DNA of 64,000 nt, the filler included, from Stramenopiles sp. TOSAG23-6 (lineage: Eukaryota): assembly GCA_900128565.1 (NCBI GenBank). It is 12 parts of 12 records of this genome, joined end to end, with 100 filler letters (N's around TTAATTAATTAA, not from the genome) between each part and the next. Parts side by side here need not be neighbours in the genome. Positions count along the whole stretch, not along the records: positions 37,735 to 43,004 come from LT636942.1; 11 more parts are not named here. The stretch is one strand, 5' to 3'. Below the pieces are notes generated by a model. The model was not told where the DNA came from. It ran no database searches and worked only from the letters and a program-made list of their open reading frames with translations. The position numbers were made by a program, and so were the translations under genes. Shown in pieces: positions 15,022 to 62,509 of this stretch. Numbering within the stretch: the stretch's first letter is position 1; each line of letters opens with the position of its first letter.

Positions 15022-15463
15022 GAAATTGAATTTTTTTTTTTTCTTCTAAAAAAAATTTGTACCTAACGAAATATTTTTTGAAATATTGTCCCAAAAAAAC
15101 ATTTTGGGCTGGACAGCGGACTGATGAAAATGATGATTTCGTGCAACTTTTATTTCCTGATGCGATCGAATATAAAAAAATGTATGAAAATATTGGAATG
15201 AAAATGGTCTAAACATAAATGTTGAAAATTGTTAGGTACAAAATTTCCTACGAAAAAACATTTTTTTCGGTAAAAAAAAAAATGTTTCGTAGTAAAATAT
15301 GTCAAACGTTTCAAGAAAATGTTAGGTACAATTTTTTGTATGAAAAAAATTAGGAAAAATAAAAAAACAATATAAAAATTAGGAAAAATAAAAAACATCT
15401 CAAAATTTGGTTCAAAAAATAAATTTTTTACATTACATTTTTAAATTTTTAAATTTTTATAGT

Positions 15464-15921
15464 TTAGCACAAAAAAATATTTTTTTCCAAACTTTTAATC
15501 CCATATGAAGGTAAATTATCAATAAGATTTGCATCATCCTCAGTCACCTCATCCGATATTGTATTTTGTTTTTTTTGTGTATTTTGTGTATTTTGATTTT
15601 TTTGTTTGTTTCGTAATGAAGCCAGTTCTTCTTGCATGTATTGTGAAAAAATATTCAAAAAAAAAAAAATTTTTGTTAGGTACAAAATTTTTATAAAAAA
15701 AATTTCATACAAAAAAAATACAAAAAAAAAAAAATAAAATTTACATAATGATTTTAAGTTCATCAGACGTTAAATCTGAAGATTTTTTTTTTTTTTTGTA
15801 AAACATTTTCATCTAAAATTGTTTTTCGATTAGCAATTTTCATTATTTTTTCATCAACTGTAGATTTAATGACAAATCGAATAATTTTTACTACTTTTTT
15901 TTGACCTATTCTATGACATCT
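15464..15921 (-). CDS. SNF2-family helicase C-terminus, 5' partial; intron 15636-15744
   Basis: RCHRIGQKKVVKIIRFVIKSTVDEKI (helicase motif VI region), preceded by a TATAG acceptor at 15922. Confidence 0.8.
15636..15744 (-). other. family intron, GT-AT, 109 nt, phase 2
   Basis: att at|GTAAATTTT...TGTACCTAAC...CACAATACAT|g caa gives ELKIIMQEEL. Confidence 0.8.
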
Positions 15922-21594: not shown

Positions 21595-21909
21595 TATGAA
21601 TATTATTATAACACAAATACAGGTGAAAGTGTTTGGACTTTACCAATGCCATTAGTAAAGAATATTGAAAACCCTAACCCTAATAACACAGGAAATCCTA
21701 ACCCTAAGGAAAACAAAACACAATTGACAAGAATGATTAATGATGCTAGTAGTATTACATCAAAAACAAATAGTTTGAAATTCCATAAAAAAATACCAAC
21801 CCCTCCATTGAAAAATAATGATACAAATAATTTGAATACATTACATACATTACCTCCACCTCCACCAAAGAATGAAAAACAACTTCAATTACTCTGGCAA
21901 GAATGCTAA
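21595..21909 (+). CDS. WW-domain protein, C-terminal fragment
   Basis: YEYYYNTNTGESVWTLP at the contig start, followed by a Pro-rich tail. Confidence 0.7.
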   Translation, partial: YEYYYNTNTGESVWTLPMPLVKNIENPNPNNTGNPNPKENKTQLTRMINDASSITSKTNSLKFHKKIPTPPLKNNDTNNLNTLHTLPPPPPKNEKQLQLLWQEC

Positions 21910-22233
21910 ACGAAATACAACACGAAAACTTCAATTACTCTGGCAAAAATGATGCGCGGCACTCGGCACTCTTAGGGTTAGGGTTAGGGTTTTAATAAAA
22001 TATTAATAATAATAATCTAGAAAAAACAGGATACGCGTATCCGTATCCAAAACAAAGGTATATTCAAAAGTAGTGTACCATCTTTCGTAAAAGAACAAAC
22101 TATATAAGTACATAACGGGAAAACACAAAGTGATCTACACCTTCTTCAAAACGACTTAATAATAATTAATAATAAAGAATATATAAACACATTCTTTATT
22201 CAAAGATACTACAAGAACCAGCGAAAATAAATA

Positions 22234-23110
22234 ATGACGACCACATCCGAAACTCCACTGTTGCGAGGGAACTCGAGTGTGAGTAAGAAGAAGCCATTCT
22301 GGACAAAACAAAAAGTAATCATACTTGTAGTCTTTCTAGTGGTTGCAATATCTCTTGGTATTTTAATTCCATTGGTCTTTCTACGTCGTTCAAAGCCAAG
22401 TTATAAGCCACCACCACCACCAGGACCACCACTACCCACACGTAAGCGTATAAAACTAATTAACGTTACAAGTGATCCCATACAAATTGATTTACTTACA
22501 GTTGTTCGATATGGCAAGGTTAATCATAACAATGACAACATTGACATTGGTCATACTGTACGTTTTTACAATTGAATTTTTTAACTAAATTTTTTTTTTA
22601 TAAAAATTTTGTACCTAACCAAAAAACAAATTTCGAATTTAATTTTTTTTTACAATACATGTACTTTATTTGGGTAATACATTACATTCACCACACCACT
22701 TCAAGATGGATCTTAGAACTAGTGAATATTATGATGTAAATTATACATATCTAGAAAAACCACAAAGAAGCTTTCAGTTTATACCTGATCAAATTTGTTA
22801 TACAATGAAATTAGATCATGCTTTAAGCGTTACTCATGTAATAAGCAAAATGCGTGAATGGTGGAAGCAAAATTTTGAACAATTTAAAACGTATAACAAA
22901 AATACTGCAAATTGTAGGATGTATATTGATTCAATGGCTTCCTTAATCACGAAAGATAATTCGATTCAATATCCCTCAAAATTAATGGGTTCAATTAAAT
23001 GGAAAGATTTACTCAAAGAAAATGATTCACAACAAAATTCACTTGTAAAATGTCCAAGAAGAGTTCTTTTGTTGAAAAAAAAACAAAAAAAACAAAGAAT
23101 GCTATTGTAA
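22234..23110 (+). CDS. membrane-anchored permuted papain-like (PPPDE/LRAT-like) putative peptidase; intron 22558-22660
   Basis: N-terminal TM; spliced GHT-VLYLG and YNKNTANCRMYI resemble the His/Cys dyad motifs. Confidence 0.5.
22558..22660 (+). other. family intron, GT-AT, 103 nt, phase 0; upstream exon ends CT
   Basis: act|GTACGTTTT...TGTACCTAAC...TACAATACAT|gta ctt tat ttg, in frame with ORF 22670. Confidence 0.82.
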
Positions 23111-24902: not shown

Positions 24903-25224
24903 TGTTTTTGCTTAATAATTTATCGAATGAACTTTAGTAATGAAATAATTGAAAGTCTTCGACAGTGCCAGGAACTACCTGACGCGACATTATGACGCGC
25001 CATCGAAAATTGCCAGGAACTAGCTAGCCTTTGATTTCGTACAAAATTTCATACCTAAAAAATTGGTCAGCTGACTTTCATGAACGGCCGGTGCCCGTGC
25101 GTGCGCATCTCTCAAAGTCAACTGAACTCTACTCCATAAAGCTTCCTCAAATTGTACAATCGTCTTGAAATTTAGCTCTTACTCTACAAGAAACAACACA
25201 AGTGCTCAACATAATTGTAAAACA

Positions 25225-26601
25225 ATGAAAACAACACGTGTATTTGTTCTTTTGGTTATACTATGTAATACAAGATTTGTACATGCTGCAACAACACCAG
25301 CAGCAGCGAAAATCGATGAAATTGGTTCAATACGACAAGCTCTCAAAAAAACACGACACCAACTACAAGCAAACGAGACCCACGATGATTTGACTGATGA
25401 AACAACGACATTGAATGATATACCAGTACGCACTGTAAATGAGCTTCTCTCTGTACCTGATATCGTATCTCTGTCCACTATAAATAAGAGGATGCATCAG
25501 CGGGTGAGTAATGATTCTGAACCCTTGGCAAGTGGCTTATTCACGAAAGTTGTGAGAGAATTTGGACGATACACCAATGAAGAAGAAATAAAAGAATCTA
25601 CTGAAAAACCAGAAAACGAACCTTTACTAAAGTGGTTATATCGTGTACGAAGAATTTACCGAATGCTAAAATTTCAAATTCCTATTCACTTCAAAAATAC
25701 AGGAAGGGATCTTACATGTATGTTTTTAAAGAAAAAAAAAAGATTTCAATTTTTTGTCTAAATTTTTTTTCATACGAAATTTCGTACCTAACAAATTTTT
25801 CAAAAAAAATTTTTTTTTTACAATACATGGCTTACATGGAAAGAAAACGAAAGCCGTGATGAATGGTTACACCGTATTGAAAGCATCTGGGAAAGAGAAG
25901 CTTTGATTGCATTGTATAATAGTACAAATGGAATTAATTGGAAGTGGAAAACAAATTGGAATACAGATGCAGATATTTGTGATTGGTTTGGAGTCATTTG
26001 TAATGAAGAAGGAAGTGTTATTTGGTTGTTATTGCAAAACAACCAACTAACTGGTTCAATTTCAAATGAAATTGGTCAACTAAAAAATCTCAGAGAATTG
26101 AAATTGTGGAACAACAAACTATCTGGTCCAATACCAATTGAAATTGGTCAACTAACAAAGCTCACACATTTGCGCTTGGAAAACAACCACCTAATTGGTT
26201 CAATTCCAAGTGAAATTGGTCGACTAACAAACCTTCTATATTTGAACTTGAATTGGAACAAACTAACTGGTTCNATTCCAAAGGAAATTGGTCAACTAAC
26301 AAAGCTCAAAAACTTGTACTTGAAAATCAACAAACTAACTGGTCCAATTCCAAAAGAAATTGGTCAACTAACAAATCTTGAAGAATTGGACTTGCAATGG
26401 AACCAACTATTTGGTTCAATACCAAGTGAAATTGGTCGACTAACAAATCTTAAGAAGTTGTTTTTGCAATACAACAAACTATCTGGTCCAATACCAACGG
26501 AAATTGGTCAACTAACAAAGCTCATAGGGTTGAACTTGTACAACAACAAACAATCTGTTTCCAATACCAAGGCTCAACTAAGAGAAATCTTTGGACTTTG
26601 A
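25225..26601 (+). CDS. signal peptide + F-box-like + plant-type LRR protein; intron 25718-25828
   Basis: MKTTRVFVLLVILC signal; LNDIPVRTVNELLSVPDIVSLSTINKRM; spliced frame leads into EREALIALYNSTNG..W..CDWFGVIC and about seven 24-aa NxLxGxIPxEIGxL repeats. Confidence 0.85.
25718..25828 (+). other. family intron, GT-AT, 111 nt, phase 1
   Basis: aca t|GTATGTTTT...TTTCGTACCTAAC...ACAATACAT|gg ctt; contains an in-frame stop; removal fuses ORFs 25165 and 25903. Confidence 0.87.
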
Positions 26602-27072: not shown

Positions 27073-29328
27073 TACATGTGGCAATATCGCCCTTTCTTCC
27101 ACCTGTAGCACCACCAAAGCCTCCACCAAGGCCAAAATCCGTGCCTTTCTTCTTTCAATTACCGACGAATAAAAAACAATTTAAAAAGCATGTTTCTCGA
27201 CTTAAGAATCAATCCAATGACAGTAAGAAAACTATAAAAAGTCGTGCTCAAAATACAAAAAACGTCAAAAATATCAAATTTGAAAAAAAAACTACAATTC
27301 CACAACGTCCACATCGTAAAACTCCGCCTCCTTCTCCCCCGCCAAGAAGAGATTTGTTACATAAATTTGATATATATTCCGATGCACGAAATAATGGTAA
27401 AAGTGTCAGTTCTGCGGCCAAAATTATTTTCCCTTTGTTAGAATCAACAGAATACAATACAAAAAATGTATTATATGAAACTCCGTCGCATGTAGAAGAA
27501 TTGATACTCAAAAAAAATAATGAAATGGAAATTCTCGTCTCGCAAATAAAATGTTTATTTTCGCATATAGAACAAGAAAATATTCGAAATATAATGATTC
27601 CAAGAACACGAAATATTGTTTTAAAATATGGAAATTCTGGTACACATTGTGTCCGAAAGTTATGTAGGTTTTCATTATGAATTATAGCAAATCCTGTGGT
27701 TTTTATTTATACCTAATGAATCCTAATGAATTAATTTTAATTTATACCTAATGAATCCTAATGAATTGTGCACTTTTACAAATATTTTTTAATATACATG
27801 GACGTTTTTATTAAAAATTTACCCTGAAGCTTGGAAAAGTTCTTTTAGTCACTTGAATAATTGGAAAAGTTCTTTTCAAAGTTCTTTTCAAAGTTCTTTT
27901 TGTCATTTTCATGATGGAGATGTAGGAAGAGTAGATGAAAATTTTGATACTCATTTTGATTTAAATGATTTTTCATTTATTCAAACAACAAAAGAAAAAA
28001 AAAGTAAAAAAGATGCTAAAACTCACGATATTACGAATGAGAATGTACAATCGCATAATGATATTACTATAAATTTGCATAAAACTCATTCAAATAAAGA
28101 TATAGAAAAAACAGAAAATTTAAATGTTTCAAATAAAGATATAGAAAAAACAGAAAATATAAATGTTTCAAACTTTTGCTGGGTTTGGGATTGGAAAGAT
28201 GATCAATCATATTTAGGAGACATTAACAAGGATATGTTAAATAAATCTGGAAACGAAGATATTGAAGAAAAGACCCAAATTCAACGTAAAGAAATACAAG
28301 TAAAGGAACATACGAAAATTTATAATGAAACAAATAAGGATGTGGTGCCAAAATATACGACAAATATGGGTAGGAAAACACGGCGAGTTGCTGTTGGTGA
28401 AAGCGGAGATGGAGAAGTGACGCCATCAACTGTAAAAAATAGTATCCCAAAATCTGAAAATAATAATTCTACAAAAGATTTTCAAAAACAATTTGCTAAT
28501 TTAAAAGTTGATATAAAACCAAATACAAATCAGCAAATTAAAAAGGATATACTATACGATAAAAAATCATTTTGTACATATTACACTCATATCGAAGACC
28601 CGTGTTATCATCCAATTGAAAATGGTTCACTTACACATTTGGAGGTGGATCAGTCTGTATTTGAACCTTTACATTGTCAAATTGATGATCAATTTTCAAC
28701 TCCAAATATTCAAAATCGATCCCAAAAAGGTATTCAACGAATGATCCAAGATTCATTAAGTAAAGTAAAAACAAGTCTAGGATGGAGCGATTCAAAAATG
28801 TATAAACAACACCCTGGTGCTGCAAAAGCTATCATTGGTGGCGTATTATCTGCGGAACTTCTTTCATCTCCACTACCTGATGCAAAACATTCAATCCAAC
28901 CGGCTTCTGCTGGCAGCTGGAAAATTGTTTGTGGTGATATTGTTCAAATTTGTGGTCTCCGAAATGATATAGGTTTAAATGGTGTCATTGGTATTGTGAG
29001 GAAGTTGGAAAAACGACGCTCTGATGTTTTATTAGAAAACGGGCATAGAGTCTCTGTATCACATGGTAATTTAGAATATATTGGTCATCAGAACCTTGAT
29101 GAAGAAAGTCATGCTGAATTCTCTGATAGTGATGAATATGATTACTATTCATGTTCAGGTACAAATTCACCTACTACAATAAATACTAATGGTGAAACAA
29201 AAAATGAAAAAACAAAAGGTAATTTTTTATCATCCGTTGATGAATTTGTATCGAATAAGTATAGTGGTAAGCCTACCACTCCAAGTATAAAAACACACTG
29301 GAAACAGTATCATCAGAAAATAACATGA
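27073..29328 (+). CDS. hypothetical Pro-rich/low-complexity protein with KOW/SH3-like C-terminal motif, 5' partial; intron 27664-27799
   Basis: ORFs 27078 and 27853 join in frame (RKL-WTFLLKIYPEAW); GDIVQICGL...LNGVIGIV. Confidence 0.6.
27664..27799 (+). other. diverged family intron, GT-AT, 136 nt, phase 1, duplicated branch region
   Basis: tta t|GTAGGTTTT...(TATACCTAATGAATCCTAATGAATT)x2...AATATACAT|gg acg. Confidence 0.75.
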
Positions 29329-32259: not shown

Positions 32260-32400
32260 NNNNNNNNNNNNNNNNNNNNNNNNNNNNNNNNNNNNNNNNN
32301 NNNTTAATTAATTAANNNNNNNNNNNNNNNNNNNNNNNNNNNNNNNNNNNNNNNNNNNNAAAAAAAAATTTCAAAAATTTTTAGGGAAAAAATTTCCCAC

Positions 32401-32432
<32 letters not shown>

Positions 32433-32450
32433 GAAAACATGAAAACATAC

Positions 32451-33122
32451 AGTGATATTTTCATGTAATTCCAAGCTACTCGACATGGATGAATCTCGTA
32501 ACAAATCAAATATTTTTTCATTATATATTTGCATAAATGAGCAATAGACTCTAAAATTTATTCCAGTGTCGTTTTGTTTTAAATATCTACTATTTTTTTC
32601 ATCTTTTTTTTCAACGTTTTTTTTGGAATTGATTTGTTTTTGGTTTAAATGCTTGAATAATCCTTGGCAACACCGCGGGATTATACCACGCATTGGTTCA
32701 TATGTATTTAGTATGTTCATATTTTCTTTACCGAATAACGTATATGTTTTACCAGATCCTGTTTGACCATATGCAAATATTGAACTGTTATAACCAGAAA
32801 CGACATGATGGACAGCACGTTCAACACTTTTGTAAATTACATCTTGGGTCTCTGTTGGGCGGAATATATGATCAAAATTACATTCAAATGTCTGTTCCGC
32901 ATCAACAACACGTATTTCATTGGACGATAATACAGTTGTACACGCTTTTGAGTTTATTTCACGACCCAGCAAAGGTCGTACTCGTATAAACACCTTGACA
33001 TGATCAGTTTCATCATCATTTGACACTTCGTTTTTGTTTTTTTTCAGTATATTCTTCTCAACGGTACCAAGACGTCGTGCTGCTGATTTAGCTGCAGCGT
33101 GTCTTGGAGACGTTGCTGACAT
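32451..33122 (-). CDS. kinesin motor domain protein, 3' partial
   Basis: VKVFIRVRP, FDHIF, GYNSSIFAYGQTGSGKTYT, GIIPR, SFMQIYNEKIFDLL; family donor GTATGT at 32450. Confidence 0.92.
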
Positions 33123-33370
33123 TTATATATTCTTAGAATTGAATACAATTGTACAGTAGTTATTTATGAAAGCGATGTGTAGGTTACTGTATTATTCCAA
33201 AGGTGTAGTGGTGGTGGTGTTATATATGAGGTAGGCTCTTTTTGCCGTTTTTTTTGTAAAATAACGTATATTACATTATGTCATCATCGATCATCGTGTT
33301 TCCATTGTTGTGACACTTATTTCTTTTCTTCTTCGCTACTTCTCATTAAAAGGTATTGTTTTTGAGAGAA

Positions 33371-34588
33371 ATGGTTAATGCAACAATCTCTGCATATAAT
33401 GGTATTATTATTTCAAAANGTGGNACAATCACAGCTGATCCTGCATATAAACACGAGTTGGAAACGGTGACAAACATTGACCCCAGTAAACAAGAAATGC
33501 GTTGTTTACTACTCTGTTGTCACCACCAAAAGACAACAAGTAGTTTGTGGCGTCTTTATCAATTTGGAGGTGCACTTAATATTGGTCCATGGGGAGTTAT
33601 TGAAGATTATTTACATCATAAAATTATGAGTATTGGTGAAAGTGCCTTTAAAGATTGTACATCACTAAAATCAATAATAATACCAAATAGTGTCGCTAGT
33701 ATTGGTAAATGTGCCTTCCTTTTTTGCACATCACTAGAATCAATAAAAATACCCAATAGTGTCACTAGTATTGGGGATTATGCTTTCAAAAGCTGTACAT
33801 CACTAAAATCAATATTAATACCGAATAGTGTCACTAGTATTGGTGATAGTGCCTTTGGTGAATGCACATCACTAGAATCAATAAAAATACCCAATAGAGT
33901 CACTATTATTCGCGGACATGCCTTCAGAAGTTGTACATCACTAAAATCAATAACAATACCAAATAGTGTCACTAGTATTCGTGCACGTGCCTTTGATAGT
34001 TGCACATCACTAAAATCAATAATAATACCAAATAGTGTAACTAGTATTGGCGGATGTGCCTTTGATTTTTGTTCTTCACTAAAATCAATAACAATACCAA
34101 ATAGTGTCACTAGTATTGGTGAATATGCTTTCATGAGATGTACATCACTAAAATTAATAACAATACCAAATAGTGTCACTAGTATTGGTAAAGATGCTTT
34201 CTTTCGGTGTACATCACTAACATCAATAATAATACCAAATAGTGTAACTAGTATTAATCATTGTGCCTTCAGAAGTTGTGAATCACTAGAATCAATAATA
34301 ATACCAAATAGTGTCACTAGTATTGGTGATCGTGCCTTTGATAGTTGCGCATCACTAGAATCAATAATAATACCAAATAGCGTAACTAGTATTGGTGATC
34401 GTGCCTTCAGTTATTGCGAATCACTAAAAACAATAATAATACCAAATAGTGTCACTAGTATTGGTGATAGTGCCTTCAAACTCTGTAAATCACTAAAAAC
34501 AGTAAAAATATCAAGTGGTACTTATATTGCTGAAAATGCTTTCAGTGGATGTTGGAAAGTGAATATCATTCATAGTGAAACAAATTAG
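33371..34588 (+). CDS. BspA-type (LRR_5/TpLRR) leucine-rich repeat protein, 13 repeats
   Basis: 23-aa VTSIG..AF..C.SL.SI.IPNS repeats (69-nt DNA unit). Confidence 0.92.
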
Positions 34589-34894
34589 TACGATATTCAA
34601 TAATAAAAGAAAATCATTAAAAAATTTCAGTATTTCAGCATTTGATCTATATTACTAATACTAATACATACAGTGAAATCAAAATTTTTTTTCTACAATT
34701 TTAAACAAAAAAAGAATTATTTGTGCCCACGAAATATACGTACCCCTATATATGTATATGACACGTCATCGATCATCAAAATCGAATCGTGTTTGGTTGT
34801 TGTTGTTGTTGTGACACTTATGATTCATTCAAGTCAACCTTGTTCTGTTCTCTTCTTCGCTACTTCTCATTAAAAGGTATTGTTTTTGAGAAAA

Positions 34895-35767
34895 ATGGTT
34901 AATGCAAATATCTCTGCATATAATGGTATTATTATTTCAAAATGTGGAACAATCACAGCTGATCCTGCATATAAACACGAGTTGGAAACGGTGACAAACA
35001 TTGACCCCAGTAAACAAGAAATGCGTTGTTTACTACTCTGTTGTCACCACCAAAAGACAACAAGTAGTTTGTGGCGTCTTTATCAATTTGGAGGTGCACT
35101 TAATATTGGTCCATGGGGAGTTATTGAAGATTATGTACAACGTGAAATGATGAGTATTGGTAAATTTGCCTTTGTACATTGCAATTCACTAAAATCAATA
35201 ATAATACCAAATAGTGTCACTAGTATTGGTGAATGTGCCTTCGTTTTTTGTCATTCACTAAAATCAATTACAATACCAAATAGTGTCACTAGTATTGGTG
35301 ATAGTGCTTTCGAAAGATGTGATTCACTAAAATCAATAACAATACCAAATAGTGTCACTAGTATTAGTGAAAGTGCCTTTCAAGATTGTACATCACTAAA
35401 AACAATAATAATACCAAATAGTGTCACTTTTATTCACACATATGCTTTCAGAAATTGTATATCACTAAAATCAATAATAATACCAAATAGTGTCACTAGC
35501 ATTCGCTTATATTCCTTCAGTGAATGCAAATCACTAAAAACAATAATAATACCAAATAGTGTCACTAGTATTGGTGACTGTGCCTTTGAACACTGTACAT
35601 CACTAAAAACAATAATAATACCAAATAGTGTAACTAGTATTGGTGAATATGCTTTCTATAATTGTACATCACTAGAAACAGTAAAAATATCAAGTGGTAC
35701 TTATATTGCTGAAAATGCTTTCAGTGGATGTTGGAAAGTGAATATCATTTATAGTGAGACAAATTAG
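34895..35767 (+). CDS. BspA-type LRR protein paralog, 8 repeats
   Basis: N-terminal about 80 aa and C-terminal cap almost identical to the upstream copy; exactly 5 x 23 aa shorter. Confidence 0.92.
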   Translation: MVNANISAYNGIIISKCGTITADPAYKHELETVTNIDPSKQEMRCLLLCCHHQKTTSSLWRLYQFGGALNIGPWGVIEDYVQREMMSIGKFAFVHCNSLKSIIIPNSVTSIGECAFVFCHSLKSITIPNSVTSIGDSAFERCDSLKSITIPNSVTSISESAFQDCTSLKTIIIPNSVTFIHTYAFRNCISLKSIIIPNSVTSIRLYSFSECKSLKTIIIPNSVTSIGDCAFEHCTSLKTIIIPNSVTSIGEYAFYNCTSLETVKISSGTYIAENAFSGCWKVNIIYSETN

Positions 35768-35831: not shown

Positions 35832-36887
35832 TTAATACCAATCATTAGGAACATCTCTAAATAAAAGTGAAATCCTTCGATTTTGACGGACTCCATTTTC
35901 GCCTAAATATTTCTCTCCAGAAAATTGAACGACATCTTTTTTCTCATTAGGGTTAGGGTCTTTATTAGGGTTAGGGGACTGATCGACATCTCGATCGACA
36001 TCTTGATCGACATCTTGATCGACACCTTGACTATATTCAATACTTGGGAGTATTTCGTGTGTATACTTAAATCTCAAATCATTTTGATAAAAGTATAGAC
36101 TACGACGTGGTAAAGCTATATCAACACTATTCAATACTTGTTTTGTCTCTGGACGTTGTTTTTCGTGTTTTTCGTGTTTTTTGTGTTTTTTGTGGTTTTT
36201 GTGTTGTTTTTCACCTTTTTTTTTTTCATCATTTTTTCGCCCCATATATTTCTCCTCAAGTTGTAATCTCATTGTACAATTAGAAAGAAGACTAATACCT
36301 GCAATTATGCCACCTGAAAATTTAACATTATCTACATGTGGTTTAATGAAGCCATCTTTCTTCAAATCCAAAATGTGGACAGGTAAAAATTTTATTTCTG
36401 TAGGTTTTTTCTTACTTGCTTCAATTTGATTCTTTTTCGTTATATCAATTTCATTATGATGTACCACTGGTTTGTTTACCGAACGACAAGAACTTTCTAA
36501 AGTACACTGTTCAGATAACCACTTGTGTGTACGTTGTATGACATTGACGTTGGACGGATCCACCCATTTTGTTCTTTCTGTTTCCTTATACTGTGATATC
36601 ACAGAGTCCCAGTGTGTGCCTTCATATTTCTTCCTACGTAATATCGGATCAACTTCTCTTACTAGAGACATCTCTTCTTCTTCACTAATAAAGTCTGGAA
36701 TTATCCACAAATCCTTAAACGGAAAGTTTGGGCCGCAGTTATCTTTGTACACAAATGGGGTTGCAGAATTTGTTACTATGCTGCGTATAGGGTTAACATC
36801 CAACCGCGGCGGACTAAAACGTTGGAAATGATATGGCTGTGCATATCGTTGTACAAAAAACGATGGAACAATCAACTGCTTTCTCAT
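35832..36887 (-). CDS. ALKBH7: alpha-ketoglutarate-dependent dioxygenase AlkB homolog 7
   Basis: DFISEEEE, YEGTHWDSVI..YKETE, HILDL...GFIKPHVDNVKFSGGIIAGISLLS, RRSLY, YTHEI, RRISLLFRD. Confidence 0.88.
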   Translation of the reverse strand: MRKQLIVPSFFVQRYAQPYHFQRFSPPRLDVNPIRSIVTNSATPFVYKDNCGPNFPFKDLWIIPDFISEEEEMSLVREVDPILRRKKYEGTHWDSVISQYKETERTKWVDPSNVNVIQRTHKWLSEQCTLESSCRSVNKPVVHHNEIDITKKNQIEASKKKPTEIKFLPVHILDLKKDGFIKPHVDNVKFSGGIIAGISLLSNCTMRLQLEEKYMGRKNDEKKKGEKQHKNHKKHKKHEKHEKQRPETKQVLNSVDIALPRRSLYFYQNDLRFKYTHEILPSIEYSQGVDQDVDQDVDRDVDQSPNPNKDPNPNEKKDVVQFSGEKYLGENGVRQNRRISLLFRDVPNDWY

Positions 36888-38966: not shown

Positions 38967-40614
38967 TTAATTCTTTTTCTTACATCGATTTAGACGACTA
39001 AGTTTGTGATGAAATCCGTTTCACTTCTTGAATAACCTTACCCAAAATAATACGAACGTGTACACGGTTCTGAAGCATTGTCGGATGTTTTCGAGATACC
39101 AGTGTTAAATTTTGAGACACAGAATCATAACGAGGCCCACATGTATTGTCAGACAATATTTCAAAAATTTGATTTGTTTTGTTAGGTACAAATTTTACTA
39201 TGAAAAAAAAACAATTGGAAAAAAATCATAATGAAAAACGTACATAGCTGAGAAAGTGTTTGTATCATAGATTTATCTAGACCGAGGGCTGGCACATGGA
39301 CTTTTAAAGCAACTTTTCTTTGACCTGGGTGAACTTCTAATTCACTCTGCCGGACGCCTATGTACTCAGCAAATTCATATTGAACTCGAGCACCTCCGAT
39401 GTATGGGTTATGAAAAAATATTTCAAAAAAAAAATCGTTAGGTACGAAATTTCGTACGAAAAAAAAATCAAATTTGAAAAAAAAATAAAACATACATTCT
39501 GGTCGTTCCATCAAAAAAGATTCAAAATTATTTTGGACTTTTACTTTACTTACTTGATGATGCATCCATTTATCAAATTTGGCATACCACTGTTCAAGCT
39601 GAAGCAATTTTTTTACACCACGTTTACTGTGTAAAGAGAACAAAACATCTTCCCCACTAGAGTTATAATCATCTGTACCGCCTAGAGCCTATGTATTTTG
39701 GAAAAATATTTCAAAAAAAAAACTTAAATTTGTTAGGTACAAAGTTTTGGTTCAAAAAAGAAACCTTTTGTTTTACCACCTTCAAATGCTTCAGGGCCAT
39801 TATGCTCTGTGTCATCATATGTATAATTGAATAGATCTAATGCTGGATCCTTTGAGAGATAATGCTCATCTAGATCCTCACAAGTAAATCTTTGTCCATT
39901 ATTTTGTACACTCCGAGAAATTTCGGGATGCTTTTGTGCCCATCTGTCATAATACTTATTAATTATTCCATCCATAACACCGCCATCTTTCTCATGGAAT
40001 TCTTTGAATCCAGCACCCATACCATCATCACCTTCTTCCAAATCATCTTCGTCGTCAACGACGCCCACGTTTGTAGAAGGAACCTCTTGAGACAATTGCG
40101 AACTCACATCAAAACCACAATGCCATAAAGCATTAATTACACCTTCTGGTACACCTTTTCCAGTTCCAGATTCACTTGCGTCAACAATATCAGGCAATAC
40201 TTCCTCTACTTGAGCATCAAAAGCATCCATGATTGCTAAAGTTTCCGCATCTAATGTAGCTCGTTCATTTTCTTCAAAGTTTTCACCAAAAAGTTCTACA
40301 GTGAGTTCGTCCATTCGCTTTGTCAGCGCATCAGAGTCAGCCAGCAATTTTTCATCTGACATTAATTCCACTAAAGCATCATAAGCATCCGCCCCAATCG
40401 CATCTTCAAGAGAAGGAATAATACGAGAAGTGCGTTCACTTGTAGCTTCTCTGAGTGCGGTAGCGTACTCATTAGAGAAGCAGCGTGAAGAGTGGGAACA
40501 AAGTATATATTTAGAAGCTTGAAAAGAAGGAGATGTACTACCTATACGTACACCAACATTCTGCAATGGCTTGGATATCGTATGCCTTACGGATCTACAT
40601 GTGGTGTGCAACAT
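38967..40614 (-). CDS. mitochondrial ribosomal protein mS35 (Rsm24/MRP-S28 domain)-like; 3 introns
   Basis: Mitochondrial presequence-like N-terminus; HPGQRKVALKVHVPALGL..LSQL-CGPRYD..LTLVSRKHP..QNR only after GT-AT splicing. Confidence 0.72.
39141..39243 (-). other. family intron, GT-AT, 103 nt, phase 1
   Basis: cta t|GTACGTTTT...TGTACCTAAC...ACAATACAT|gt ggg cct cgt tat restores the conserved LxGPRY motif. Confidence 0.88.
39403..39495 (-). other. family intron, GT-AT, 93 nt, phase 1, in frame
   Basis: gaa t|GTATGTTTT...GTACGAAATTTCGTACCTAAC...AACCCAT|ac atc; perfect 16-nt palindrome; exact acceptor chosen by frame. Confidence 0.72.
39691..39776 (-). other. family intron with atypical 5' half, tentative GT-AT, 86 nt
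   Basis: ggt g|GTAAAAC...TGTACCTAAC...AAAATACAT|ag gct; donor uncertain. Confidence 0.5.
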
Positions 40615-40895: not shown

Positions 40896-43004
40896 ATGAG
40901 GGGTAGCATGCGAAAGTCACCTCCATCTTCAATTTCATCGAGGGAGAACAATAAGAATTCGAAGAATACAAAAGCGAAAGACAGTGGAGTCGACGCATAC
41001 ACGTCGAAGCCCATCGACGCGACGCGGGCAAGAATATTGAAGCTTGCAGCTGCTCGTGAAGCTCGGCGTAAACGCGCTGCTAACTTCAAGGAAGAGCGCA
41101 AGGCGGAAGAAGCTCGCAATCTCAAACAGGGTAGGCCTGGGGATGTAGACTTTCAACGTCTGATCAAAAAGTTCCGTGCAACACAGCTAAAAGTAGCTCA
41201 GCCATATGCTGCACCAAAAACTGTTGGTACCGATGGAGAAAACGCAAAAATAAATATATGTGCTCGTGTGAGGCCTGTAAACGAGAAAGAGAAGCGAAAC
41301 AAATCATTTGCTGCAGTCACAGCATCAAATCCAACAATGTACGTACATGAATGTAAGTTTAAAGTCGATGGCATAACAAAACATTTGGCTAATCACACTT
41401 TTGAATATGACAACACATTTGGCGAGACTAGTAGCAATGAAAGTGTTTACGCTGTGACTGCGCGCCCATTGGTAGAGTTTGTGTTCAAAAAAAATTTACG
41501 TCAACGGAGTCGTCGTGGACTTGGTGGAAATGCTACATGTTTTGCTTATGGACAAACAGGATCTGGTAAAACATGTACGTTTTTTATCATGAATTTTTTC
41601 CTACATTTTTTTCGTACGAAATTTTGTACCTAACAAATTTCGAATTTCGATTTTTTTTATAATACATATACAATGAGTGCCCTTCAGGTAGAAGCCGCTC
41701 GTGATATGCTAGATATGTTAGAATTACCTGAATATAGTGGTTTATGTCTCAATTTATCTTTTTTCGAAATATATGGTGGTCGGGTGAAGGATCTTTTACA
41801 TGAAGAGTCTGAGCTTTTGCACATCCGAGAAGATGGGAAGGGTGTAGTTCATGTCCGTGGTCTTCGTAGTACTCAGGCTTCTACTGTAGATGAGGTACTC
41901 AGTCTCATCGCACGAGGTAGTAGTAAACGAAAAACTGAGGCAACTGCCATTCACGAGCAATCCTCACGATCACACGCAATATGTAATTTAGAACTGCGAT
42001 TTAAAAATAATGGGAAAGAATATGGGAAGTTATCTTTAATTGACTTGGCTGGAAGTGAAAGAGCTTCCGAAACTGTTAAAGATAAGGGAAAGCAACGACG
42101 CGTCGAAGGTGCAGAAATCAATAAATCTCTTTTAGCACTGAAGGAATGCATTCGTGCTCTGGATAAAGGTTTGACTCATGTGCCTTATCGTCAAAGTAAG
42201 TTGACACTAGTTCTCAAGGAAGCATTCTTCCCAGGTGCCCGAACGACTATGATAACAACAATTGCACCAACTCAAGCTGACCAAAATCACACACTCAATA
42301 CGCTGAGATACAGTAATCGTATTAAAGCAAAGGGAAATAGAGGAGACACAGGTAAAGCATCTTTTACAGATACAAAAAGTGATATTGATGTTGTAAGAGC
42401 TCGTGAACTTGAAATAAAATTAGCTGCATCTCGAAATCTATCCCCACCCCATGTAGAAGGCAATACTGAATCATCCGTATTAAAAAAGTCAAAAATTGGG
42501 AAGCCTAGAATCCCGCAACCATATTCGTCTGGGTCTATCCCAGAGCCTGCATCACACCCCAAACTAGTTAATAAATCATCCAAATCTTCTAAATTTTCTA
42601 GCAATTCTTCGAATAAGCGAACATCTACCCAAAAGAAATATTCAGATAAGAGTGGTAAATTTGTAAAAGACTGTAGTAATATAGAAAAACGAAATGCTCG
42701 TAAAACAAAGAATGTCAATAAAAAGAAAAGTAAAAAAATTTCGAGTCCTATAGAAAGTGCTATAGGCAGCACATTTGATGAAATGATGGAGACGATGCGA
42801 CGGAATGGATCCACAATAGATAGTGTGATTTCTAGTGAAGATGACGACATGGATTATATGGAAATATTTGATGTAGAAATGGAAGATATGGGAATGGATG
42901 ATTTAGGACTACTTGATGGTATTGAAAGCCCTGAAATTTACTCGAAGGAATATACAAAAAATACAAAAAATACAAAAAATACAAAAAATACAAAAAATAC
43001 AAAA
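40896..43004 (+). CDS. kinesin-13 family protein, 3' partial; intron 41575-41667
   Basis: VHECKFKVDGITK (KVD loop), ATCFAYGQTGSGKT-YTM, SSRSHAI, LIDLAGSER, EGAEINKSLLALKECIRAL, HVPYRQSKLT. Confidence 0.93.
41575..41667 (+). other. family intron, GT-AT, 93 nt, phase 1, directly after the P-loop
   Basis: aaa aca t|GTACGT...TAATACAT|at aca atg gives GSGKTYTM; contains an in-frame TAA. Confidence 0.92.
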
Positions 43005-45184: not shown

Positions 45185-48100
45185 ATGGTCCTTCCCGGAG
45201 TCCCCGTCTTACAGGCATCATTACAAAAACTTTCTCATGGGTCAAATGACAAACTAAGTAGCTGGGACACTCACTTCTTCCGCACAAATGTGAGTAGTCG
45301 AAGTCTCGAATATTACAAAAATGAAACGGCCCCATCAGGGAAAATGCTTGGGTCAATACCGCTTGAGGATATTCAAGCAATCACTCGAGTTGATCAGCGA
45401 CATTTTGTCTTGAAAATAAATTTATTGTTGGGTTCAGAAACGCCAGAAACGTCTAAATATTGGTTGGATAAGCTAGAGGGATTTATTCACGAGAATGCCG
45501 CACACCAATGTGGACAAGCTGTAGTGAATGCTCGAAAAGATGTGGAAATGAAGAACAAAGCTGCACGTTCAGTTGAAGGCCCAGCAACGCGACCATCACG
45601 CCGTCGCTCACGAAAACTCCATAAAAGATTAAGCTCTAAAATTGGAAAAGTTGGAGCTAAAGCTGCAAGTAAAGTGAAGGGTGGAGTGACTAGAGGTTCT
45701 CACATTGTTGCGAAGCATGCAGATAATTTCGTGTCGAATTCTCGCGCAACAAAAGGTTTGAGAAATGCTGTAAAGAGTATTGATAATTCTTCACACATTA
45801 AAAAAATACGAAATGCTGGGCATATGGCAACAATTGCTTTTATGGGTTCACCAGACGACATTGGTGGAATTACTTTTGAGGAATTTAGACGTTGGTATCT
45901 TGAAACACAAGTTGATGAAGATATGAGATATATTCAAGAAAAAAATAAGGATAACAAAAATGCTAATCAGGCTGGTTATATGTATAACTTATTTCAAAGG
46001 TTTGACGAAGATAATTCTGGTACGCTTGAGAAGGAAGAAGTTCGAAAACTTTTGAAAATGCTTGGAAAGAAATCAACAGGTTTATTTCGCTTGAAAAGGT
46101 CCAAATTAGATGCGGCCTTTGCAGAGATGGATTCAGATTGTTCTGGAATGATAAGTTTTGACGAGTTTGTCGACTGGTGGCAGTGGAAGCATCCTGAAGA
46201 AAAAGTTGAATGTATGTTTTATTTTTTTCAAATTCGATTTTTTTTTCGTACGAAATTTTGTACCCAACGATTTTTTTTTGAAATATTTTTCCAAAATACA
46301 TGGACTGTAGATCAACGTATTAAATATTTGTTTGATAAAATTGATACGGATAATTCAAATTTACTAGAGAAAAAAGAAGTTAGAAAATTATCTAAACTTT
46401 TAGGTAATCGACTCACATCCATGTGGAAAGGGCAAGATGCTTTAGACCGTGCGTATCAAGAAATGGCATCTAAAAGGCCAGAAAGAATGCCGGACTTTGA
46501 GGATGATGCTGTGGATGAGACGAAAAGCAGTGATATAGATGATGCCGATGATGCCGAAGATGTTATGGATGAATCTAAGAATAGTGAAATTTATGAAGAA
46601 TCTAAGCAAGTGAATAATAATGAATTGGATACAAACGTAGACAAGGAAGCAAATCAAACAAGCATTGCAAACAAAAATGCTGCTACTAAGAAGGAAAGTA
46701 GTCCTCGAACTGTTAGACAAAGGAATATTTATGCTGATTTTCCATCCTCAATCAGTGAACGAGTTGAAAAGAAAAGTTCAAAGAAGAAGAAAAAGAAAGC
46801 GAAACAGTCAAAGGTGGTTAAGAAATCAGTAAAAACAAAACAAAATATGAAAGACGAAAGTCCGCCAATGACACCAGCGCCACCTACGAAGCCATATACA
46901 CCAGATGGATCAAAAACCAAAACAAGACTCCCACCAAATACAAATCAAATTTCAAGTGAACTAACTTTCGATGAAAAGATACCAAAGCAGAAAATTTCAA
47001 CCAAAGAGGTTTCAAATGAAAAACCAACAAAGCGGAAAACTTCAACTGAAAAAACAACAAAGCGTAAAACTTCAAATGAAAAAACAACAAAGCGGAAAAC
47101 TTCAAATGAAAAACCAACGAAGCGGAAAACTTCAAATGAAAAAACAACAAAGCGGAAAACTTCAACCGAAGAAATTTCAAACGAAAAACCAACGAAGTTG
47201 AAAACTTCAACTGAAGAAATTTCAAATGAAAAAGTTTTAAATAAAAAAAAACAACAAACTCCAAAGACATTTGATGAAATATCTAAAGAATTAACAAAGT
47301 TCTACCACCGTTACGCACCTGATCGAGTTCACAAGGTACCTAAAGTATTGAAAAAATACAAAGGCAAGGAAGGCATTCTATACGACATGTACAAGAAAAA
47401 GTACGGCGATGCTCCAGATATTCTACTTCATTTGAAAAACGAGATGGTGGAGGATGATATAAAAGCCATAGAACCAGCAAAAACAACAAACAAAGTACAA
47501 AAGAGTTATAAAAAAGATCCACCAGTCCCCCCTCCGACTGCAGCGGTAAGTATTTCAAATAAAATTACGAAAGCACCACCAGTACTACCTGTTGACAGTA
47601 CACCACCAAGCAGTATAATTGAGAAGGATCATTCAGTAGAGGACAGTGAAACAATGGGGGATAGCTTGTCATTTACTGCAAATCAACACCAAGATGACAA
47701 TAATGGGGATGAGGATGGTGAGGAGGAGGAAGATGGGGAAGATGATGTTGATAAGGAGGATGGTGGTGATGAGGAGGATGATGAAATGGAAGAAGATGAT
47801 GGAGAAAATGATGGAGATGATGGAGAAGATGATCGGGAAGATGATGGGGAAGATGATGGGGAAGATGATGGGGAAGATGATGGGGAAGATGGGGAAGATG
47901 ATGTCGGAGGATCATGGGATGATGAACCAGAACAAGAGAAATTGCTTCAAAGTAATCAGGAGGATTCTAAAACAATACGCAATGTAAAAGAGTACGTAAA
48001 TAATCAATATTCTGAAAGTGACCACGAAGATGATGTAGTCAAAGAATCTGAAGTAAAATATACAGAACCTGAGTCTGAAGAATCTGAATCTGAAGAGGGT

Positions 48101-49059: not shown

Positions 49060-50040
49060 ATGAATAGTTTGAGTTCATCTGAAAATACTTTGCTAGGTAT
49101 TGTCACTGGAGCAGAAGTTCTTTTGGTTGTTCAACCTTTAATATTTTGGAAAAATAGTAAACAACAGTCATTACCCTTTACTGCTAATCCACGTACAATA
49201 TATAGAGGTCTTGGTGCTTCTGTGTCTTCTCAAGCGTCCGTCACTGGTGTGCAATTCTTCACGACTGGCATCATTAAACATTTCTTGACACAAGATTCTG
49301 ATAGAAATCTATCATCAACAGAAACTATATTATCTTCTCTCATTGGTGGTTGTTGTAGTGGATTACTATGTGGACCCACAGAACTTTTAATGATTCAACA
49401 ACAAAGACATGTACATTTTTTATGTTTCATTTCTAATTTCTAATTTTTTTTTATAGAAAATTTTGTACCTAAGAAAAAAAACATTTTTTTACTATTTTTT
49501 TTTGTATAGGGTGGAACATTAATTAATGCAGCGAAACAATTATGGAAAGGAAAAGGAATTACAAGTATGACACGTGGCATTCTTCCATCTATAATGAGAG
49601 AAGGTGTGTATTGTACAGGATATTTAGGTATAGCACCAGTGGTTTCAATACATTTTGAAAATACTTTTGTTAATAATAATAATAATAATAGAAAAAATTT
49701 TGAACATTCTGAACATTCTGAACATTCTGAACATTCAGACACATTTGAAAATTCTGGTGGAATTCGTGCACGATTAGCAGGTGCAATTGTGGGTGGTCTT
49801 TTTGCTGGTATTGTTAGTCATCCACTTGACACAATTAAAACAAAATTACAAGGCGATGGTTTAAGTAAGAAATATTGTACCATCCGTGACGTCATTGTAG
49901 AAACACGAAATAATAGAGGTTTAATCAATGGATTGTATAAAGGAGTTTTATGGAGAAGTGCTACAATAATCACAGCTACTTTACTTATGAATATATTTAA
50001 AGATTATACAGCACCTGTTTTATTTCCTACAAAATTATAA
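49060..50040 (+). CDS. mitochondrial carrier family (SLC25) protein; GT-AG intron 49411-49509
   Basis: QPLIFWKN..Q, PTELLMIQQQ, HPLDTIKTKLQGD signatures. Confidence 0.9.
49411..49509 (+). other. family intron with canonical GT-AG ends, 99 nt, phase 0
   Basis: cat|GTACATTTT...TTTTGTACCTAAG...GTATAG|ggt gga, in frame with ATG 49567. Confidence 0.85.
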
Positions 50041-55024: not shown

Positions 55025-56317
55025 ATGGGGGAAATTCATGCAATAGCAACAACGCAGCAGAAGTTGGACTTTTATAAACCACCTAGTGCTATGAAATTTG
55101 TCACTGAAAAGAAGTACCTCAAAGGAATGAAACTTTTGGACATAGAAAGTTCACAAGACGAGGCTTTGGTATCTCTTGAATTTGCTGCGAGACTTGGGCA
55201 TGCAAAGGCACAAATCCAGCTATATCACATTTATGGAGATCGTACCAGAGCTTTAGAGTGGTTAACATTTGCGGCGGAGAAAGGTGATACCGAAGCTCAG
55301 TACTTGCTTTCCTGTCATATCCGGAAACAGCTACCGGGTGAACACTCTAACGAGACTAACGAGACTAACGAGACTCCTACTTCTTGGTTGACTTTGCTGA
55401 TGAACGCGGCATGCAAAGGCCACGCTGATGCGCAAAGGGAGCTTGCTATTTGTTATTTGAATGGCGTCGGTGTGCTGAAGTGTGACACCAAAGGCTGTTC
55501 TAGATTCGAGGCTGCGAGTCATTGGCTGTTGAAAGCTTCGGCACAAAATCATGCGTCTGCTCAATTCAAGCTTGCGACTCTCTACGTTAGATACGCCAGT
55601 TGTCAGACGAGTGGCTCACTCAAAGAAGTTGTACAATTATATACAAAATCGGCAGAGAATTACAATGAAGCGGCAATGTGGGTCTTGATTGATATATATA
55701 ATAATGGCAAGTTTGGCGAACCAAAATGTCTTAAAAAGTCATTTATGTGGTATGAAAAGTTAGCTAATCTAGGTGATAGTAAAGCCCAATATGAACTAGG
55801 TGTACGTTTTAAGCTTGGCGATGGATGTAGGCAGTGTAACGTGAAAGCATTTGAATGGTTTTCAATTTCAGCTGGCAATGGCAATAAAGATGCACTCAGT
55901 GCTGTTGCTCATTGCTACGAGAGAGGTTGTGGCGTGGAAAAGTCTTTGCTTCAAGCTTCACGATTGCAAAAAATTGCTGGGGAGTTTGAAAGAGCAACGA
56001 AGACAAATGGTGTCGCATATGTACGTTTTAAAAATTGAATTGAATTTTGTTTTTTGTCGTTTTTTGTACGAAATTCCGTACCTAACGATTTAAAACAAAA
56101 AATTGAAATATTTTTCACAATATATGTAGACACTGCGTATGTTTGTGAGTCTGCGCGCACGTGGAATAAGTGCAAATTGCGGCGAGCTATCCAGACATCC
56201 ACCAAGCACAGAACAATTGGGATAAAAAAACATGAGTCAAAACAACACCGGCGCGACCAACGACGACACTGGAAACAAATAAATTGGTCCAAGGGTCGAA
56301 GAAATAATTGGTCCTAA
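55025..56317 (+). CDS. Sel1-repeat protein; intron from 56021 to 56125 (AT) or 56129 (AG)
   Basis: Multiple AA..G...AQ..L...Y..G.G repeats; both acceptors give open last exons. Confidence 0.85.
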
Positions 56318-58794: not shown

Positions 58795-59085
58795 TATCAT
58801 CTACTCTATCTTTTTCAAAGAGAGAAACTTCTGGATAATTTGTAGCATCACGAAACCATGATCGTGCATATGTCATGTACAATAGAGGTCTAATCTCAGA
58901 TGTTTCATTTGCACCACCATAATGCAATGTTCTATAATCATGAATAATTACTGAACCCTATATTTTTTGTACAATATCTTTTTTTGATTTTTTTTGTTAG
59001 GTATGGAATTTTCTATGAAAAAAAAATGAGAATACTGGTTAGGGTTAAAACGTACATTTCCTTCTAGCAAAGATTCATCAAACTT
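58795..59085 (-). CDS. PhyH-family 2OG-Fe(II) dioxygenase fragment; GT-AG intron 58958-59055
   Basis: GSVIIHDYRTLHYGGAN..RPLLYMTYARSWFRD. Confidence 0.8.
58958..59055 (-). other. family intron with canonical GT-AG ends, 98 nt, phase 0
   Basis: aat|GTACGTTTT...CATACCTAAC...AAATATAG|ggt tca. Confidence 0.82.
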
Positions 59086-59239: not shown

Positions 59240-59597
59240 TGATCGTGCAAAATCAATTCGAGATATTTTAGCTCCAAACTTATGTTACAAAAGTGTTGTA
59301 GATTGTGACCACGCTGCCGAAAGTAAAGAAAAGAATGTTTTTCATCATGAATTTCATTTTTTTTTGTATGAAAATTTTGTACCTAACGATTTTTTTTACA
59401 TCAAAAAAAAAAATTCACAATATATGAGTAAAATTGTTGGACGTTTAAAACTGCTTCAGCAAATACTGGGGAAAACTGGAAGAACGAAAGAAACTGTCAA
59501 ATTGTTTTGTGAAAAAGTGAGATTTGAGCATAAAACTCTCTTGGATCGAATTCAAAATGTTCAACTTGAACAAGTGAATAATACTCAAACTGAATAG
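59240..59597 (+). CDS. hypothetical protein 3' end with an in-frame family intron at about 59333-59425
   Basis: Open frame after a family acceptor; internal TACCTAAC element. Confidence 0.55.
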
Positions 59598-60043
59598 ACT
59601 TTGATATGAAAAAGTCAAGAGTTTACAATTGTTTACAATTAGTTCTAGAAGTTGTACTTTTTTTTATTAAAAACAAACTGAATAGAGTATTATATATACT
59701 AGAAGGATTAATTTTATTTTGTACAAATAGTTAAAATTACAATAAATTTGTAGAAAATGTTTCAAACAAGTGTAAAATTACTATAAATTTAGAACTACAT
59801 AAATTGTATCGAAATGAACAGGACATTCCAGATATCATTGAAGAAGTAAATTTGTTTTACAGTGGCAGAAGAACCTAACCTAACCCTACCCTAACCCTAA
59901 TTCCAAATTTCCAAAAAATTCCAATAATGTCGCAATAAGCAGGTTTATTCCCATAATTAAATTGTAACTGTCGAAAGTCAACTGTCAAAAAAAGGCCAAC
60001 GGAAATTGAGTTACTTCACCCACCGTTGAACAAAACTATCATC

Positions 60044-61515: not shown

Positions 61516-61729
61516 TTCTAAATAAAAGTACTATATATATATACAGTAGCGTAACTAGTACTACTACTACTGTATGTATAATTGGATGGTATAGCTACTA
61601 ACATAGAGAAAAAAAACGTTTCATATCGGATATCGTCGGAGATTTTGGAAAATCTTTCAAAAATCTCCTTTCTTTTGACACTTACAGTAGTCTACTTTGC
61701 ATTTATCAATCAGTTCAAGGAAATTTATC

Positions 61730-62305
61730 ATGTCTGATTCTGAATTCCACACAAAATTAATTCCAGGCTTTCCATCGTATCCAACGCCTAATCTTAATGA
61801 TTCTTACTTTGAACCACCTGGAGGAAATGATATTGATATGTTATTCAATACTCACGCAAAAGCCCCTTTGAATAACCTTCATCATCTAATTATTTTGAAG
61901 GCCTATGACCCGCGTTCCATGGACGCCAAGTCATACAAGGAATTTAACAGTCCTGAAACGCTACAAGCTGCCCTTGCCATGCGGGTACTTTTGAAAGGTC
62001 GAGATAATGCGATAAATGCAGGTACGCTGAGATCATACTATATACCCTCCAATCTACGAGAAGACAGACTCATCAGAAATTGGAGCTTCAAATATTGGCA
62101 ACGAAAAGTAGCTACTGCACAAGTAGCTGGAGCGCATGGTAACCCATTATTTCGTCGTTATATTCACGAGTCTTCAAATAAATCAGGTTTGCAAAAGTAT
62201 TACCAAAGACAAACACAAAAGAAGAACGCCATGACGGAATGGCCAATACCTCACAACAGCGATATAAAACAAGGTCATTTGTCAACATTCCTCAACAGTT
62301 TATAG
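61730..62305 (+). CDS. hypothetical protein
   Basis: About 190-aa ORF divergent from the calmodulin-like gene. Confidence 0.6.
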   Translation: MSDSEFHTKLIPGFPSYPTPNLNDSYFEPPGGNDIDMLFNTHAKAPLNNLHHLIILKAYDPRSMDAKSYKEFNSPETLQAALAMRVLLKGRDNAINAGTLRSYYIPSNLREDRLIRNWSFKYWQRKVATAQVAGAHGNPLFRRYIHESSNKSGLQKYYQRQTQKKNAMTEWPIPHNSDIKQGHLSTFLNSL

Positions 62306-62509
62306 ATGCTTCTTCAATGAAAAATAATCTTTAAAATGAATTTTCAGGTAGTTCTATAGCTACGTATTAACAAAGTATATAAAAGTATATTTATTTATGT
62401 TGAATCATAATAAAATAGTGCAATCACAAAATTTTGTTTTAAAAATATTTTCATTAACAAATTTCGTACCTAATGATTTTTTTTTACTAAAACTTGTACC
62501 TAACAATAC

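Follow-up and report, generated by a model that had tools for sequence, protein, structure and literature searches.

The 64-kb window studied here consists of contigs of Stramenopiles sp. TOSAG23-6 (GenBank assembly GCA_900128565.1) joined end to end, and on its contig at 37735-43004 it contains a gene whose kinesin motor domain is interrupted by a 93-nucleotide (nt) insert. Exon 1 (40896-41574, + strand) starts with an ATG at 40896, comprises 226 codons plus 1 nt and ends in GGT AAA ACA T, as an earlier note on this DNA had read it, and exon 2 (41668-43004, +) begins AT ACA ATG and stays open up to the contig end. The Pfam kinesin model (PF00225) was matched at positions 1-89 in exon 1 (residues 124-226) and at positions 110-325 of 327 in exon 2 (E = 3.8e-60), in agreement with the earlier description of the rest of the motor domain as intact. 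Exact removal of the 93 nt was computed to give a 672-residue stop-free protein in which the motor domain is internal, beginning at residue 124 of at least 672, and which carries GQTGSGKTYTM, the product that had been predicted for a cut after AATACAT. The P-loop is whole only once the insert is removed, and switch I (SSRSHA) and switch II (LIDLAGSER) are readable.

Judged by its sequence, the interrupted gene is a kinesin-13 (KIF2/KIF24/MCAK type). The product contains KFKVDG and LKECIRAL, and we take KVD and KEC to be kinesin-13 class motifs. Among its 120 best database matches are "kinesin family protein 2/24" and "Diatom spindle kinesin-1", with identities of 48-57%; the named matches among them come mostly from stramenopiles, which does not settle the lineage. 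Alignment with kinesin-13-type homologues, a check that the earlier note had proposed, was gapless across the junction for 40 full-length sequences, and [YFH][TS]M follows GK[TS] in all 95 database homologues having the P-loop. An exact 31-nt pattern from exon 1 gave no stretches in metagenome contigs.

The insert (41575-41667, +) interrupts the gene in phase 1. It opens with the 5' splice-site-like hexamer GTACGT (41575-41580, +), continues through a central palindrome TTTCGTACGAAA (41610-41621, +) and a branch-site-like motif GTACCTAAC (41626-41634, +), and closes with AATACAT (41661-41667, +), in which the AT at 41666-41667 stands in the place of an AG. This AT and the one that ends exon 1 (41573-41574, +) would be the right and left copies of a putative 2-bp target-site duplication. 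Read through, the insert meets an in-frame TAA at 41631-41633, within the branch-like motif and 19 codons past the junction, and a direct scan found no AG from the branch-like A to 41667. Of the AGs that follow, those at 41677 and 41687 (last base) lead to a frameshift and the one ending at 41691 to a T+AA stop, all of which reproduced the earlier reading. The further claim that no nearby AG is usable was too broad when reading frame alone is considered, because the fourth AG (41693-41694, +, 27 nt downstream) and the fifth (ending at 41712) are in frame and free of stops. Reading frame is insufficient here, and the nearby AGs are excluded when the conservation of the junction in the 40 gapless alignments and the 95 motif-bearing homologues is added. 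The kinesin junction also carries a 4-nt microhomology (ACAT), with which GT..AT, TG..CA, AT..AC, CA..TA and AC..AA cuts would all yield an identical mRNA.

A repeat family and its borders

The earlier note presented the kinesin insert as a decisive single case. The observation holds, but the insert is one of many copies of a repeat family, which that note had missed. The palindrome TTTCGTACGAAA, the hallmark of the family, was found 22 times in the window, where 0.39 occurrences would be expected, and the surrounding sequence is similar at each occurrence. We made a family profile from an alignment of 17 copies and searched the window with nhmmer, which returned 39 matches, representing about 35 distinct copies, across the 62.7 kb that are not N, the kinesin insert among them (41570-41671, E = 1.5e-14). 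All family counts given here refer to this 62.7 kb and not to the whole genome. Of the 22 contig ends at linkers, 12 fall within a family copy, which indicates that copies are numerous enough to interrupt the assembly. The copies lie in genes for kinesins and for Sec7/SAM, EF-hand, leucine-rich repeat (LRR), mitochondrial carrier and Sel1-repeat proteins.

The consensus of the 17-copy alignment reads AT/GTAYGTTTT...TTTTTTTTTCGTACGAAATTTTGTACCTAAC...AAATATTTTTYCAMAATACAT/, where the slashes mark the borders. Nineteen copies are complete, with lengths of 84-185 nt (median 101), and pairwise identity among copies averages 64% with a maximum of 85%. Within the branch-like motif GTACCTAAC, TACC and AA are invariant across the alignment and the T between them is nearly so. 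In 18 copies, 33-49 nt separate the motif from the 3' end, and T-rich sequence follows it, which makes it a candidate branch site; the yeast-like branch-site consensus is TACTAAC, or CTRAY. Partial or tandem family fragments at 15215-15357 (-), 25030-25066 (+) and 62455-62503 (+) lie in apparently AT-rich non-coding DNA, so that not every copy is inside a reading frame.

We then examined the borders in the 19 copies with both ends, cutting each from its GT to the family 3' end. The first two bases are G and T in all 19 copies, position +5 is G in 16 and position +6 is T in 19. At the 3' border, A occupies position -2 in 19/19, the last base is T in 17 and G in two, and position -3 is C in 14 and T in five. 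In both AG-ending copies (49411-49509 and 59055-58958), the G stands exactly where the others have their final T (..ATATAG versus ..ATATAT). Thus a GTRNGT-like 5' site of the U2 type is present, and a 3' AG is absent in 17/19 copies including the one in the kinesin gene.

The same cut restores the reading frame of the host genes. In a first pass, the longest open frame on both sides continued in the same phase across the GT..A(T/G) cut in 15 of 18 copies. After two 3' ends had been corrected and one copy added, the frame was continuous in 18/19, where chance would give one in three per copy (P = 3e-8). Every copy checked for orientation (18/18) is sense to the reading frame of its host. Lengths are multiples of three in six of the 19 and show no bias, and an in-frame stop was found in 14/18. 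Where two introns neighbour each other in one gene (13746 and 14325; 63763 and 63587), arithmetic on their coordinates showed that the phases match the length of the exon between them. Among the AT-type copies, 15 of 16 contain no AG from the branch-like A to the 3' end, and splicing to the first AG beyond that end would cause a frameshift in 9/16.

The AT at the 3' border has a counterpart upstream. An AT closes the upstream exon in 16 of the 19 copies with both ends, and in 19/26 when copies cut at the 3' side are counted, compared with an AT frequency of 0.10 in the window (P = 3e-14). On the simplest reading, an element GTAY...AATAC would be flanked by a 2-bp AT target-site duplication. 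The AT-ending copies without an upstream AT (13746, 14325 and 22558) are still frame-consistent as GT..AT. The appearance of an undisturbed site is shown by a second kinesin of another family (32360-33122, -; 30% identity to the kinesin-13), whose intact P-loop codons for GQTGSGKTYT (32735-32770, -) are uninterrupted. There, a 26-nt string running from CAAACAGG to ACATATAC is identical to the kinesin-13 sequence from which the 93 nt have been cut. This second gene is itself interrupted elsewhere by a family copy starting at 32450 (LHENIT, then GTATGT...) that runs into the contig end.

Proposed removal of the element and competing explanations

From these observations, we consider it likely, though well short of certain, that the 93-nt insert is an introner resembling a miniature inverted-repeat transposable element (MITE) and is spliced as a GT-AT intron. 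In the proposed mechanism, a short, non-autonomous MITE-like element would make a spliceosomal intron on insertion. It would carry its own 5' splice site (GTAYGTTTT), the palindrome TTTCGTACGAAA, the branch-like GTACCTAAC and a T-rich 3' arm ending in ...AAUAC, and its insertion would duplicate a 2-bp AT target, such that removal of the element together with one AT would restore the original coding sequence. The 5' cut would fall at the GT of the element and the 3' cut after the duplicated AT, giving a GT...AT intron in which A-U replaces A-G. In two older copies, the final T would have changed to G to produce ordinary GT-AG introns. From three observations, namely that all copies checked are sense to their hosts, that 5' and branch motifs are present and that the frame is restored, we infer that the major spliceosome removes the element from the RNA, with a 3' site that would tolerate U at its last position.

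A broader proposal, which we hold about as readily as we doubt it, is that the dominant intron class of this uncultured marine protist is spliced GU...AU. The major spliceosome would accept YAU or be re-tuned to prefer it, and an introner equipped with GTAYGT, a branch site and an AT target duplication serving as the 3' dinucleotide would exploit this use of YAU. The family would then be present in a large share of genes, its density in the window being about one copy per 1.8 kb, and be slowly converting to GT-AG as the last base changes from T to G.

Several points weigh against GT-AT splicing of a MITE-like introner. A 3' AU is a poor substrate for known spliceosomes. The terminal inverted repeat consists of GTAT...ATAC only (ATGTAT...ATACAT with the duplication), which is 4-6 bp. 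In minimum-energy RNA folds, the two ends pair in five of six copies, but in four of the six z is about 0 and the fold is no better than those of shuffled sequences. The AT duplication leaves the borders ambiguous in the copies that have it. Two 3' ends (58958, moved to an AG, and 39403, set by the family register) were fixed after the frames had been seen, and the copy at 59337 is frame-inconsistent, the sole one to be so. Finally, database searches for a near-identical kinesin, which could have provided a transcript-derived product, found none among proteins of 244-779 residues (best 56% among the top matches) or of 30-243 residues (best 54%). A stable hairpin joining the intron ends, as in euglenids, was rejected as a candidate on the same comparison with shuffled sequences in four of six copies.

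Among the alternatives, the one that fares best, although we consider it unlikely, is that the same element is an AT...AC intron (ATGTAYGT...AATAC) cut 2 nt upstream. The A-C terminal pair works in both spliceosomes, an AT precedes the GT in 16/19 copies, C occupies position -3 in 14/19, and the mRNA would be the same in most copies, that of the kinesin included. Against this, GT..AT is the only register in which the three AT-type copies lacking the upstream AT keep their frame, five copies have T instead of C at -3, and the two AG copies place their G at the exact final position of the GT..AT register. Moreover, GTAYGT fits the standard 5' site, whereas ATGTAY is unlike /ATAAGT or /ATATCC. 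With the three copies and the five T residues as exceptions to the AT-AC register, GT-A(T/G) is the sole description that fits all copies.

Somewhat less probable still is removal at the DNA level, either by elimination as in ciliates or because the insertion is polymorphic and absent from a functional allele. Short direct repeats at the borders (AT in general and ACAT in the kinesin gene) do resemble excision pointers. However, DNA excision does not need the sense orientation seen in 18/18 copies, and all copies begin with GT in a 5' end of the GTAYGT type and carry the branch-like motif at 33-49 nt. Standard stop codons are apparent in the long open frames, and the kinesin contig is shared with at least three other DNA runs, as judged by word share alone. 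Internal eliminated sequences of the ciliate type are independent of orientation, have TA or pointer repeats and often go with a variant genetic code; this candidate was rejected, given borders of AT rather than TA, the standard stops and the uniform sense orientation.

It is also very improbable that the intron of the kinesin copy extends to the fourth AG (41693-41694). An AG is the normal 3' signal and the product would be in frame and stop-free, but it would lack the nine residues YTMSALQVE, which are gapless in 40/40 homologues and include the [YFH][TS]M present in 95/95. Three earlier AGs would be encountered first, and across the family the first downstream AG shifts the frame in 9/16 copies while the AT end keeps it in 18/19.

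Equally hard to credit is that the insertions are retained, either as lesions in disrupted genes or as translated sequence. Three of 18 copies (1376-1293, 46212-46301 and 63587-63493) do stay free of stops across the element and the 30 nt that follow it, and two of these three (84 and 90 nt) are multiples of three that would keep the frame if retained. In contrast, the kinesin copy contains its in-frame TAA and 14/18 copies an in-frame stop, 13/19 lengths are not multiples of three and yet long frames resume in the phase expected after removal, and so many broken genes within 64 kb with all flanking frames open would be implausible.

Least likely of all are U12-type introns of the minor spliceosome: GT-AT ends are known and experimentally competent among U12-type introns in the passages cited (PMC1557818) and CCTAAC is faintly like TCCTTAAC, but the candidate was rejected on both features tested, as the 5' end is GTAYGTTT and not RTATCCTT, with G (16/19) and T (19/19) instead of C and C at +5 and +6, and the branch-like GTACCTAAC at 33-49 nt lies farther from the 3' end than a U12 branch site should. 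The U12 branch site, TCCTTAAC, is located about 10-20 nt from the 3' end.

Other copies and features of the window

Besides the kinesin copy, 18 complete copies were catalogued. Those in phase 0 with GT..AT borders are at 1293-1376 (-, 84 nt, in a Sec7/SAM-domain gene), 5891-5993 (+, 103 nt), 14325-14509 (+, 185 nt, with a duplicated core and an upstream exon ending in CA), 22558-22660 (+, 103 nt, upstream exon ending in CT), 56021-56125 (+, 105 nt, ending in ATATAT) and 63667-63763 (-, 97 nt). Phase 1 copies are at 13746-13851 (+, GT..AT, 106 nt, upstream exon ending in TT and not AT), 25718-25828 (+, GT..AT, 111 nt, in an LRR gene), 27664-27799 (+, 136 nt, diverged, GTAGGT..AT), 39141-39243 (-, GT..AT, 103 nt), 39403-39495 (-, 93 nt, GT..CCCAT), 46212-46301 (+, GT..AT, 90 nt, in an EF-hand gene) and 63493-63587 (-, 95 nt, GT..AAACAT). 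The 3' end of the copy starting at 39495 was moved post hoc from 39399 to 39403 by the family register; in this position (...ACCCAT) it keeps the 21-nt register of the family from the AAATATTTTT block and ends in AT. In phase 2 are a diverged copy at 6701-6801 (+, GT..AT, 101 nt), flanked by 293 and 373 open codons, and one at 15636-15744 (-, 109 nt, GTAAAT..AT). The AG-ending copies, both in phase 0, are at 49411-49509 (+, 99 nt, GTACAT..GTATAG, in a mitochondrial carrier gene) and 58958-59055 (-, 98 nt, ..ATATAG). The copy at 59337-59425 (+, 89 nt, ..ATATAT) has a degenerate 5' end (GTTTTT) and is the one that is not frame-consistent; it may sit in a 5' untranslated region or split a start codon (AT^G). 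The junction codon is AT^G, encoding Met, in this copy and in those at 15636-15744 (-) and 6701-6801 (+).

Candidate introns outside the family were nearly absent from the window. A scan for GTAYGT beyond 18 copies gave mostly coding or chance sites, more family members and one candidate at 61572. This candidate of about 35 nt (61572-61606, +) reads GTATGT...TACTAAC followed by ATAG and lies upstream of an open reading frame at 61697-62305. Should it prove genuine, this genome would also contain a conventional GT-AG intron whose branch site is yeast-like. A search of viral contigs for the introner core gave no stretches, and an Rfam search of the window gave no match.

The window has a G+C content of about 32% and consists of eukaryotic DNA. 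Its contigs fall steadily in length from about 5.4 to 5.26 kb, those side by side are not neighbours in the genome, and the joins consist of 44 N, TTAATTAATTAA and 44 N, as seen at linkers in 5307-59185. For the contig at 37735-43004, shares of 0.89, 0.84 and 0.72 of its words were present in three DNA runs, one of which is a seawater metagenome, indicating that the organism is a marine planktonic eukaryote. Marine metatranscriptome runs share part of its words (0.27, 0.21 and others at most 0.10), values that are uninformative on splicing and habitat. The G+C content of MAST-4A single-cell genomes is given as 33.9% in the passages cited (PMC5269757), near that of the window, which we regard as a lead only.

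When up to one mismatch is allowed, the window contains 16 telomere-type TTAGGG runs of 2-3 units, where 0.09 would be expected. They include 10369-10407, 10868-10885, 12541-12552, 21672-21707, 21972-21989, 35947-35976 and 59889-59900, are scattered and not confined to contig ends, and may be a promoter or spacer motif. The products of two adjoining genes at 33356-35767 (+) have leucine-rich repeats of the BspA type (Pfam LRR_5, E = 9e-111 and 2e-72), based on a 69-nt tandem unit.

Comparison with known introns and introners

Few signals of eukaryotic gene expression are as conserved as the 3' AG. If the GT-AT reading is true, a free-living protist whose main intron class ends in AU but has an orthodox 5' site and branch motif would isolate the reading of the last base in the second splicing step. 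Gene finders that require an AG would truncate or mis-join many genes in such organisms. Our literature search, with supplements outside its scope, found no report of an intron family combining orthodox GT and branch signals with a uniform AT 3' end, and the word "splice" is absent from the main text of the single-cell MAST genome papers, supplements again lying outside the scope. According to the passages cited, published introner surveys used annotated introns and dropped families with unfamiliar splice sites unless these were supported by RNA (PMC12130899), a practice by which a GT-AT family like the present one would be missed.

Isolated GT-AT introns are described in the passages cited for human and mouse, where they comprise DGCR2 (U2-type) and seven U12-type cases (PMC1557818), and for Giardia, where one GT-AT intron is rarely spliced (PMC10711314). 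These are single exceptions, whereas here GT-AT is the rule of the dominant family (17 of 19 complete copies). The nonconventional introns of euglenids and hemistasiid diplonemids resemble the present family in their non-AG ends, border repeats and suspected transposon origin (PMC11282704, PMC12621601). As characterized there, however, they are without GT, polypyrimidine tract and branch consensus and need strong pairing from end to end, while the folds found here are no better than those of shuffled sequences in 4/6 copies.

Parallels also come from other introns with non-canonical borders. Like the family described here, the introners of Amoebophrya belong to a marine protist and are repeated non-canonical introns; they have inverted repeats at their ends and direct repeats of 3-5 nt overlapping the borders (PMC7789003). 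In the cited account they differ in having no dominant terminal dinucleotides, inverted repeats of 8-20 nt and about 54-58% G+C (nuclear gene fragments), with no U1 small nuclear RNA found (PMC7789003); here, the GT-AT rule is uniform, the inverted repeats are 4-6 bp and G+C is 32%. The AG-AC and AG-AT introns of Fritillaria borealis derive from transposons, as we propose for the present family; their borders bear both inverted and direct repeats, their 3' ends include AT, and they are described in the passages cited as processed by a modified major spliceosome (PMC11282704, PMC13326754). Fritillaria is an animal (a tunicate) whose introns have a 5' AG and diverse borders, unlike the present protist, in which a textbook GTAYGT and a branch-like motif are combined with a deviation at the last base only.

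The introners of Micromonas pusilla and Aureococcus share with our family, as interpreted here, the properties of short, non-autonomous MITE-like elements present in many genes in sense orientation (Huff et al. 2016, as summarised in PMC11282704). In Micromonas, as the cited source describes it, the element gives the 5' site and the target duplication gives the 3' AG, with the element and one duplicate removed exactly (PMC11282704). The Micromonas and Aureococcus systems have a 3-nt duplication and a canonical AG, whereas the family described here has a putative 2-nt duplication (AT) and a non-canonical AT. If correct, our reading carries the introner model, where a splice site comes from the target duplication, over to a non-canonical dinucleotide, and the two AG-ending copies may show conversion to AG in progress.

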